DNA of 64,000 nucleotides from Escherichia coli (GTDB lineage: Bacteria > Pseudomonadota > Gammaproteobacteria > Enterobacterales > Enterobacteriaceae): the NCBI RefSeq assembly GCF_002854065.1, contig NZ_CP024147.1; one strand, 5' to 3'. This document shows, in pieces, positions 58,535 to 59,497 of this stretch; within the stretch, counting starts at the first letter, position 1; the number at the start of each line of letters is the position of its first letter. Both the position numbers and the translations under genes were made by a program. Under the pieces are notes generated by a model that was given only the letters and a program-made list of their open reading frames with translations, was not told the DNA's origin and ran no database searches.

Positions 58535-59497
58535 ATGTTAAAGATAATACCCGGTGCAACTGGATACTTTAATAAAACACTCAATTCAAATCAATTCGAT
58601 AATAAAGATGCAACCAAAGATAAATTAGATAATATAGATGCAACCAACGATAAATTAGATAATAGAGGTACAATCAAAGATAAATTAAATAATATATATG
58701 GTAAGTCTATTGATTATTCAGCGCTGCGTCATCGGGATATAATTATTGCAAAAATAGATTTGTTTATTCAAAGAATCACTCATAATTTATGGCATGCACG
58801 TAAAAAAAATGTGTTTTTAATTGAGCAAATAACTAATCTCAAAGAGTGGGTTAATAAGTATATTGCAGATTGCACTGATGAGGAATTAAACGATCGTGAC
58901 TTTATTGCATCAGTTGTTGACCGGGCTATTTTTCATTTCGCGGTTAATAGTATATGTAATACTGAGGGTAATAAAGATGCAACGCCCATAGAACGATATA
59001 CTTTTGATGTAGAAACCAAGAATGGCCTTCCCTCCACGGTTCAGCTATTTTATGAGGAATCTAAAGATAATGAACCTTTAGCGAATATACATTTGCAAGC
59101 AATAGGTTCTGGTTTTTTAACGTTTGTTAATGCATGTCAGAAATATGATGACAACAGCTTAAAATTATTCGCTTCGCTGTTGATTTCACTTTCATACTCT
59201 AGTGCCTACACAGATTTAGCAGGAGCAGAAAAAGTGAATATTAATGATCATAATGGGAACTATCTGACAGCTCAGTTTGAAGAGTTATCTCAACGTGATA
59301 TGAAGAAGTACCTGGGAGAAATGAAGCGTCTGGCAGATGGGGGAGAAATGAATTTTGATGGCTATCTGGATAAGATGTCACATCTGGTGAATGAAGGAAC
59401 GCTCGCCCCTGATATTTTAAGCAAAATGCGAGATGCTGCACCGAAATTAATTGACTTTTCTAAGTCGTTTGACCCAAACTCAAAGGAAAAGATATAA
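58535..59497 (+). CDS. AT-rich hypothetical protein, apparently an intact fused homologue of K-12 yjbL + yjbM
   Basis: 320 aa single ORF at the zur-dusA position; three tandem 10-aa repeats ([10 protein letters not shown] / [10 protein letters not shown] / [10 protein letters not shown]) near N-terminus. Confidence 0.7.

Follow-up and report, generated by a model that had tools for sequence, protein, structure and literature searches.

A 3′-truncated allele of the Escherichia coli DUF2713 gene, split into yjbL and yjbM in K-12, on an AT-rich island at dusA

We analyzed a 64,000-nucleotide stretch of Escherichia coli DNA (contig NZ_CP024147.1; hereafter the window), focusing on an open reading frame (ORF) located between zur (57701-58216, - strand) and dusA (59913-60956, + strand). 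The ORF starts with ATG at 58535 and comprises 320 codons encoding 320 aa, with ~32% GC. The gene order dinF-yjbJ-zur-X-dusA-pspG, where X is the ORF, is common to the window and E. coli K-12, and the GC content falls to 0.28-0.39 around the ORF versus ~0.53 in the flanks. An earlier note made from the sequence alone had described an uninterrupted, AT-rich frame in the zur-dusA interval, and its coordinates are exact. The chance that a 320-codon frame stays open in such AT-rich DNA is ~1e-11 by our own estimate (stop frequency of ~0.076 per codon). Residues 105-320 of the product match positions 2-215 of the 235-position Pfam model PF10897 (DUF2713; E = 1.5e-127, 424.5 bits), and the last 20 positions of the model remain unmatched because the gene is truncated at its 3′ end in the window. 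The length of the frame in AT-rich DNA and the strong DUF2713 match therefore identify the ORF as a genuine gene. As shown below, the window carries an unsplit but 3′-truncated, damaged allele of a gene that has already been catalogued.

In K-12, the same position between zur and dusA is occupied by yjbL (b4047) and yjbM (b4048). The zur-dusA intervals of the window and K-12 are ~90% identical at the nucleotide level, and the alignment placed YjbL (84 aa) and YjbM (235 aa) colinearly on the N- and C-terminal parts of the window ORF. Compared with the window, K-12 has one 30-nt repeat unit fewer, in frame, a run of seven A residues (A7) in place of eight (A8), and a 6-nt in-frame deletion, and it is devoid of the extra base found at 59494 in the window, so that its 3′ end is intact. 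The loss of one A from A8 terminates the first frame at ...HARKKMCF*, which yields the 84-aa YjbL, and leaves the 235-aa YjbM in another frame. The earlier note had supposed that the two K-12 genes are a split version of this ORF and had proposed aligning them to locate the lesion; the alignment revealed the single-base A8-to-A7 deletion that parts the two fragments and excluded non-colinearity. The idea is not new, since it is already implicit in the RefSeq annotation: the record of K-12 MG1655 carries a single RefSeq/PGAP feature, 'DUF2713 domain-containing protein, frameshifted', which covers both yjbL and yjbM.

The split state of K-12 is the commoner of the two. Exact matches to the same 43-nt context were found with A7 in 2,236 complete genomes and with A8 in 931. 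The A7 frameshift has at least two origins, one of which is a haplotype block of ~200 bp (linked SNPs at 58670-58844) that has recombined onto the K-12, no107, A12, PEC1012, and 2023CK backgrounds, and the other an independent slip on a window-like haplotype in the BL21-derived strain BLK9. Secondary frameshifts (-1) were present in two of the six sampled A7 alleles (PEC1012 and A12) and in none of the in-frame alleles, and the downstream 235-codon frame is still open in four of the six. In terms of annotation, yjbL and yjbM of K-12 are best treated as one pseudogene.

The window allele is itself frameshifted at its 3′ end. In comparison with 11 other alleles of its class (class 1, defined below), it carries an additional A at 59494 (+A), which changes AAG ATT AAA to AAG ATA TAA. 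As a consequence, the frame stops 20 codons early; the lost 20-residue tail can be read in the next frame to 59558, and without the extra A the frame gains these 20 residues, which match the C-terminus of K-12 YjbM. Intact DUF2713 proteins are 318, 328, 330, 334, 338, or 340 aa in length, end with ...LIYDLFGVKSEK, and form clusters with thousands of sequences. The window protein ends with ...NSKEKI, 20 residues short of this full-length architecture. The missing tail contains the motif LIYDLFG (variants FIYVLLG, SVFDLLG, and AILKILG), which is kept in relatives of 21-29% identity. Thus, the split of the K-12 gene is real, but the window copy, which the earlier note had called intact, is not the intact ancestral state: it has a +1 frameshift of its own that truncates the frame and removes a C-terminal motif conserved in the family.

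The same truncation occurs elsewhere, as the rarer knock-out of the two. An allele in CUWW06, one substitution away from that of the window, also reads AAG ATA TAA and is annotated by PGAP as 'frameshifted' over the equivalent of 58535..59558, and a near-identical 320-aa protein (P0002) was found on two contigs only. The exact +A context is present in 6 of 5,426 genomes. In strain 2018-11-3CC, +A lies on a two-repeat background and gives a 310-aa product. In O157:H7 Sakai, ECs_5030 ('yjbM', 298 aa) carries the identical +A and has the same ...NSKEKI* end as the window protein, but it differs from the window in being a divergent class-1 allele that has only one repeat unit and, in place of A8, GA7 in frame. 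The Sakai lesion arose independently, because the intact O157:H7 strain F6294 is devoid of +A, the sole island difference between the two strains. The occurrence of +A on at least three backgrounds therefore indicates a recurrent lesion, and the 320-, 310-, and 298-aa products, Sakai ECs_5030 among them, derive by truncation from a 318-340-aa protein. No simple repeat is present at the +A site, and slippage in a homopolymer does not account for the insertion. A quasi-palindrome was considered as the cause and rejected: the inserted A completes a 5-bp AT inverted repeat, yet the energy of this hairpin is negligible (-0.1 kcal/mol).

The gene resides on an AT-rich island. In the Eco-15 locus, zur and dusA are only 155 nt apart, and homology to the window stops at 58283 and restarts at 60007, inside the long dusA ORF. 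Among complete E. coli genomes, the empty-site junction was found in 1,123 and an island match in 4,303, adding up to 5,426 (the zur-dusA interval itself was found in 4,302); the island is thus absent in 21% of them. Searches anchored on DusA showed that E. albertii and the representative of a second Escherichia species have the empty arrangement with the native DusA N-terminus (...YPAYRFSIAPMLDW), and none of 80 Enterobacterales or Vibrio loci carries a DUF2713 gene. As the sites of the outgroups are empty, the island is a derived insertion in the E. coli lineage.

Table 1. Features of the zur-dusA interval in the window
Feature	Position	Strand	Basis or remark
AT-rich island, ~1.72 kb, replacing 133 nt of native zur-dusA spacer, the native dusA promoter, and the first dusA codons	58284..60006	+	Homology to Eco-15
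Island 5′ untranslated/promoter region	58284..58534	+	In K-12 part of a 526-bp promoter island; class-1 pi = 0.042
320-aa DUF2713 ORF, unsplit yjbL+yjbM, C-terminus truncated	58535..59497	+	ORF list, frame translation, Pfam
30-nt tandem repeat, in frame, 3.4 copies, 10-aa units DN.DAT.DKL	58593..58694	+	TRF
A8 homopolymer; loss of one A gives the K-12 yjbL/yjbM split	58802..58809	+	Alignment
Inserted A making premature TAA (59495-59497)	59494	+	Allele alignment
Out-of-frame remainder of the ancestral 3′ end, 20 codons and stop	59496..59558	+	Frame translation, CUWW06 pseudogene end
Intrinsic terminator: 13-bp stem, 4-nt loop, T-run	59596..59631	+	38 nt past the ancestral stop; rated strong
Phage-type dusA 5′ end, attR-like junction, 91 nt	59916..60006	+	Phage attP likeness; prophage crossover ~60003-60007

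The 3′ boundary of the island lies within dusA, a known integration hotspot for the integrases of prophages and genomic islands (Farrugia et al., 2015, PMC4482086). The segment 59916-60006 is 82-89% identical to the dusA 5′ mimics located beside integrase and attP in mEp460, 1720a-02, SKA5, PhiR40_1, and the prophage of E. coli JNEC-KY178. The long dusA ORF opens with ~31 codons of the phage or genomic-island type, unlike the native N-terminus of Eco-15 and the outgroups. This phage-type 5′ end is 100% identical in 16 E. coli loci and 12 IMG/VR loci, and the diversity of the adjacent upstream spacer is ~4.6%. In JNEC-KY178 (NZ_AP045174.1, 4645575-4689689), a lambdoid prophage of ~43 kb with a tyrosine integrase is inserted in the dusA 5′ end, and its crossover, between ...ATGCTCGA and the following C, coincides with the boundary point of the island; the displaced 105-nt dusA fragment adjoins the DUF2713 gene. 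Judged from these sequences, the dusA 5′ end of the window is clearly of the element type. Given this phage-type 5′ end, expression of dusA in island-bearing E. coli strains, K-12 among them, depends on a promoter and 5′ end that derive from an element. The island resembles the dusA-specific elements (PMC4482086) in its insertion at the conserved dusA 5′ site (junction 60006/60007) and in its replacement 5′ end, but differs from them in having no integrase, attL repeat, or other element genes, with DUF2713 as its sole gene.

The cargo of the JNEC-KY178 prophage at its attL end includes a Panacea-domain protein. DusA N-termini of the element type (MH.N...) also occur in a soil metagenome-assembled genome, Klebsiella sp. 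BIGb0407, two Erwinia species, and Xenorhabdus mauleonii (loci L051, L059, L075, L076, and L082). The zur-dusA inserts at these five loci span 0.6-3.3 kb, with low GC (0.32-0.44) in L059, L075, L076, and L082, and these inserts may be additional islands, or remnants of such islands, at the dusA hotspot.

The zur(-)/yjbL(+) spacer of K-12 contains a 526-bp promoter island, one of 78, which is bound by H-NS in all data sets and whose genes are predicted to be foreign (PMC3661553, Table 1). The equivalent region of the window is similarly AT-rich; H-NS binding was measured in K-12 only. Through this binding upstream of the gene, H-NS probably keeps it largely silent in K-12, and by analogy it may be silenced in the present strain as well. 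A constitutive sigma-70 (RpoD) promoter of the K-12 yjbLM operon was mapped by genomic SELEX (systematic evolution of ligands by exponential enrichment; PMC3946193), and yjbL-yjbM is listed as a young operon of unknown function in a phylostratigraphy study (PMC12218254). We found no papers on DUF2713, and the literature mentions yjbL and yjbM in lists only, with none on their function.

DUF2713 is essentially an E. coli-restricted orphan family as far as the searched sequences tell. An exhaustive phmmer search of 1.84 billion representative proteins returned 52 matches, nearly all of which are fragments of the E. coli gene, and no member was found in a pattern scan of 100,044 species-representative genomes or in a metagenome scan. 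Within E. coli, three deep allele classes with 42-49% identity occupy the same slot. Class 1 comprises the window, K-12, and O157 types, whose full-length alleles share at least 82% aa identity; class 2a (334 aa, 42-44% identity) is present in at least ~230 genomes; and class 2b (318 aa) shows ~49% identity. The number of in-frame repeat units differs among class-1 alleles, with three in the window, two in K-12, and one in O157:H7, through in-frame indels of 30 and 60 nt. A handful of long-form relatives, including P0148, have 397-429 aa with 21-29% identity and are encoded on short contigs next to insertion sequence (IS) elements, hok/gef, KfrA, and autotransporter genes; no long form was found in PLSDB plasmids or JGI metagenomes. 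On the KfrA-bearing metagenomic contig L005, P0148 adjoins a gene (3842-4777, - strand) for a 311-aa protein, the N-terminal region of which, including GFWDRFCDLF, is SopD/SopD2-like (Pfam E = 9e-7; NCBIfam SopD2 E = 2.6e-6; both below the curated cut-offs), while its C-terminus contains ADLRH pentapeptide repeats like those of PipB/PipB2.

The Pfam model of DUF2713 begins at residue ~105 of the real protein, and its 235 positions equal the length of K-12 YjbM. The boundary of DUF2713 therefore seems to stem from the frameshift of K-12, with no counterpart in protein structure. No homology to proteins of known function was detected: NCBIfam gave no match, PADLOC-DB v2 no family at E ≤ 1, PDB sequences noise only, and Pfam DUF2713 only. 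Comparison of the predicted model likewise retrieved no relative of known structure, in agreement with the earlier note, in which no catalytic motif had been seen. AlphaFold2 with an alignment of 17 sequences yielded a model with a predicted local distance difference test score (pLDDT) of 68 and a predicted template modeling score (pTM) of 0.66. In this model, residues 1-63, which hold the 10-residue repeats, are of low confidence (pLDDT <50 for 1-59/63). The remainder is predicted to be helical with a small three-stranded sheet at 155-186, and the C-terminal bundle (~240-334) is modeled with confidence. The first ~20 residues are conserved across the allele classes (MSGIISSATEFFNNTLHSNQ and MSSIIGSSRGYFNKSLNSNQ are two of the forms), and the predicted disordered stretch that follows them, with its variable number of repeats, spans ~40 residues.

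The mean pairwise nucleotide difference within class 1, used here as the measure of diversity, was 0.012 in zur, 0.042 in the 5′ region of the island, 0.049 in the coding sequence, 0.046 in the downstream spacer, 0 in the phage-type dusA 5′ end, and 0.010 in the dusA core. The ratio of nonsynonymous to synonymous substitutions (dN/dS, Nei-Gojobori method) was 0.40 within class 1 (dS of 0.10) and 0.43-0.57 between classes (dS of 0.5-0.75), with the lowest value, 0.11, at alignment codons 161-200 and no 40-codon segment above 0.7. Diversifying selection on the protein was ruled out, because no segment exceeds 0.7 and the non-coding part of the island is equally diverse. The dN/dS pattern therefore indicates a long, real but weak constraint on the protein. 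The alleles are mosaic, and 7 of the 16 sampled loci are broken. Either the allele classes are far older than the diversity of the flanking core genes implies, or they were separately imported.

Taken together, we consider it likely, with a probability of about 0.8, that the window ORF is an allele of the gene seen as yjbL and yjbM in K-12, that it encodes, from an AT-rich island at dusA, a DUF2713 protein essentially confined to E. coli, and that this protein is a dispensable accessory factor. An island of ~1.7 kb entered the E. coli lineage at the dusA 5′ end, which serves as the attachment site of prophage and island integrases. It may be the leftover of a dusA-targeting element, with or without cargo acquired before, that has since lost its integrase and left junction; the DUF2713 gene may accordingly have come as cargo of a dusA element or have been present already. 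The island supplies the promoter and first codons now used by dusA. The protein sequence has been under long-term selection (dN/dS of ~0.4), so the protein does or did something useful. The gene is nevertheless dispensable and has been knocked out repeatedly at two hotspots, the A8 run (K-12 state) and the +A site (window state). Most probably, the product is a stand-alone accessory protein of mobile-element origin, which could be of use under particular conditions, in host interaction or mobile-element conflict, and be neutral or costly otherwise. Such conditional usefulness would explain the deep allele classes, the presence/absence polymorphism, and the recurrent loss, and we infer that the protein is a conditionally useful accessory factor.

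Several results weigh against this account. With two dusA-type integrases as tblastn queries, no integrase remnant was found in the island (best E = 0.06; no ORF of fitting size), nor was a remnant of attL or of the native 133 nt (best E = 0.2); excision as a circular intermediate without an integrase is unlikely. A tblastn search of 50,697 phage records gave no match to the DUF2713 gene, and none was found on true plasmids in PLSDB. The two K-12 fragments are represented by PHROG families 29005 and 28007, and at all 12 IMG/VR loci the gene occupies the end of the contig outside attL; the spacer and the dusA 5′ fragment come after it, without the dusA core. Because the IMG/VR gene is always at the contig end, these memberships are artefacts of prophage boundaries, and a phage-encoded status was rejected. 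With neither an integrase or attL remnant nor carriage by phages or plasmids, an element origin is supported for the dusA 5′ end but is no more than possible for the gene itself. Moreover, the non-coding island is as diverse as the coding sequence, so the high diversity is no special property of the protein. A frameshift is present in over half of the island-bearing genomes, which would also fit a functionless gene, and we found no expression or phenotype data for intact alleles. Finally, the statement that the protein has no known fold is weaker given the moderate quality of the predicted model.

The matches to the gene in PLSDB are chromosome-sized or otherwise very large records labeled as plasmids, together with one small plasmid. 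Among NZ_CP134663.1, NZ_OL790696.1, NZ_CP141089.1, and NZ_CP069917.1, several records measure 4.8-4.9 Mb and are evidently chromosomes, and a 17-kb Klebsiella oxytoca plasmid carries K-12-type yjbL/yjbM, probably laboratory E. coli DNA.

The gene might instead be a silenced relic in slow decay without present function, its open frames being copies not yet hit, which we regard as unlikely but as the strongest of the alternatives. At least 2,236 of the 4,303 genomes with the island carry the A-run frameshift, the +A and secondary -1 lesions add to these, almost half of the sampled loci are broken, and a fifth of the genomes have no island at all. H-NS binding (PMC3661553) and the equal diversity of coding and non-coding island DNA also fit such decay. 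The observed dN/dS, however, is ~0.4 and not 1, even across dS values of 0.5-0.75, which requires long-term purifying selection, and it falls to 0.11 at alignment codons 161-200. Relatives with 21-29% identity retain the core and C-terminal motifs, and full-length clusters count thousands of members, neither of which agrees with a relic. The frameshifts could alternatively reflect a phase-variable or slippage-tuned on/off locus, in which transcriptional slippage or re-initiation would allow A7 alleles to produce a certain amount of full-length protein. The run lies within the coding region, both of its states are common, and A7 arose at least twice; +A alone separates the islands of two O157:H7 strains, and the 235-codon frame stays open in most of the sampled A7 alleles. 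We consider this the least probable explanation. Classical contingency loci have longer runs than eight A residues. The haplotype block common to most A7 alleles has spread through recombination, not through repeated switching, the +A site has neither a simple repeat nor an appreciable hairpin, and reversion was not observed.

Two other possibilities give the protein a definite role, and we hold both for improbable to a similar degree. In one, it is a substrate of type III secretion through the locus of enterocyte effacement (LEE) or the E. coli type III secretion system 2 (ETT2), a host-directed effector in which the N-terminal 20 residues would serve as the signal and the helical body as effector domain, joined by the disordered repeat region. 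The polar N-terminus conserved across classes and followed by the low-confidence repeat segment fits this layout, as does an AT-rich, strain-variable gene bound by H-NS (PMC3661553). P0148 adjoins the SopD/SopD2- and PipB/PipB2-like protein, and other long forms lie beside autotransporters, hok/gef, and IS elements, a context of the virulence-plasmid type. The link of DUF2713 to the Salmonella effectors PipB2 and SopD2 is, however, by association through a single long-form neighbor: DUF2713 shares with them a general layout of polar N-terminus, disordered segment, and helical body, but no detectable similarity in sequence or fold, nor does it resemble other known effectors. The SopD2-like neighbor was seen on one contig only and scores below the curated cut-offs, no chaperone gene adjoins, and the gene is kept open in many strains. 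In the other, the gene is a single-gene determinant of defence or exclusion, or of mobile-element conflict, held at the hotspot by fluctuating phage selection. It adjoins one of the busiest prophage attachment sites of E. coli, shows presence/absence polymorphism, and has deep classes swapped within conserved flanks and recurrently inactivated. Such a pattern is typical of defence islands. Nonetheless, we found no PADLOC match, no partner genes, no nuclease, NTPase, or other enzymatic domain, no fold match, and no part of the gene with dN/dS above 1. The evidence does not separate the secreted effector, the phage or mobile-element conflict factor, and the relic, and the lead toward an effector rests on N-terminal features and one neighbor gene on one contig.

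A stronger version of the accessory-protein reading would make DUF2713 a new E. coli-restricted family directed at host or phage, such as a type III-secreted effector or a stand-alone exclusion factor, with its three ancient classes kept at the dusA hotspot by balancing or fluctuating selection and repeatedly switched off via the two frameshift hotspots. We give this version little credence. If it were true, a gene of importance in nature would be knocked out naturally in both K-12 and O157:H7 Sakai, and were a role in host or phage interaction proven, laboratory strains, as natural mutants, would tell nothing about it. Irrespective of the function, the locus is a compact case in which foreign DNA fixed at a phage attachment site now drives the promoter and 5′ end of the essential-pathway gene dusA, and in which deep allele classes persist in a single slot together with convergent loss through one and the same pair of mutations. 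Current understanding stays unchanged until a function emerges, and the value of the locus lies in the correction of annotation and in the case of convergent loss.

Minor features of the interval concern signals and gene starts. The only non-coding RNA candidate that Rfam gave in the island was GcvB at 58263-58419 (20.8 bits versus a gathering threshold of 42; E = 0.16), which was rejected as a chance match in the AT-rich spacer because its score is under the gathering cut-off. A strong Shine-Dalgarno-like sequence, TAAGGAGG, is present at 58498-58505, 30 nt 5′ of the ORF start at 58535. No start codon follows it at the usual distance, and the ATG itself is preceded immediately by only a weak AAGG. 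In the program-made ORF list, zur runs to a GTG at 58276 (57701-58276, - strand, 191 aa), whereas its true start is at 58216 (171 aa), as shown by RefSeq annotations and the conserved MEKTTTQELL start.

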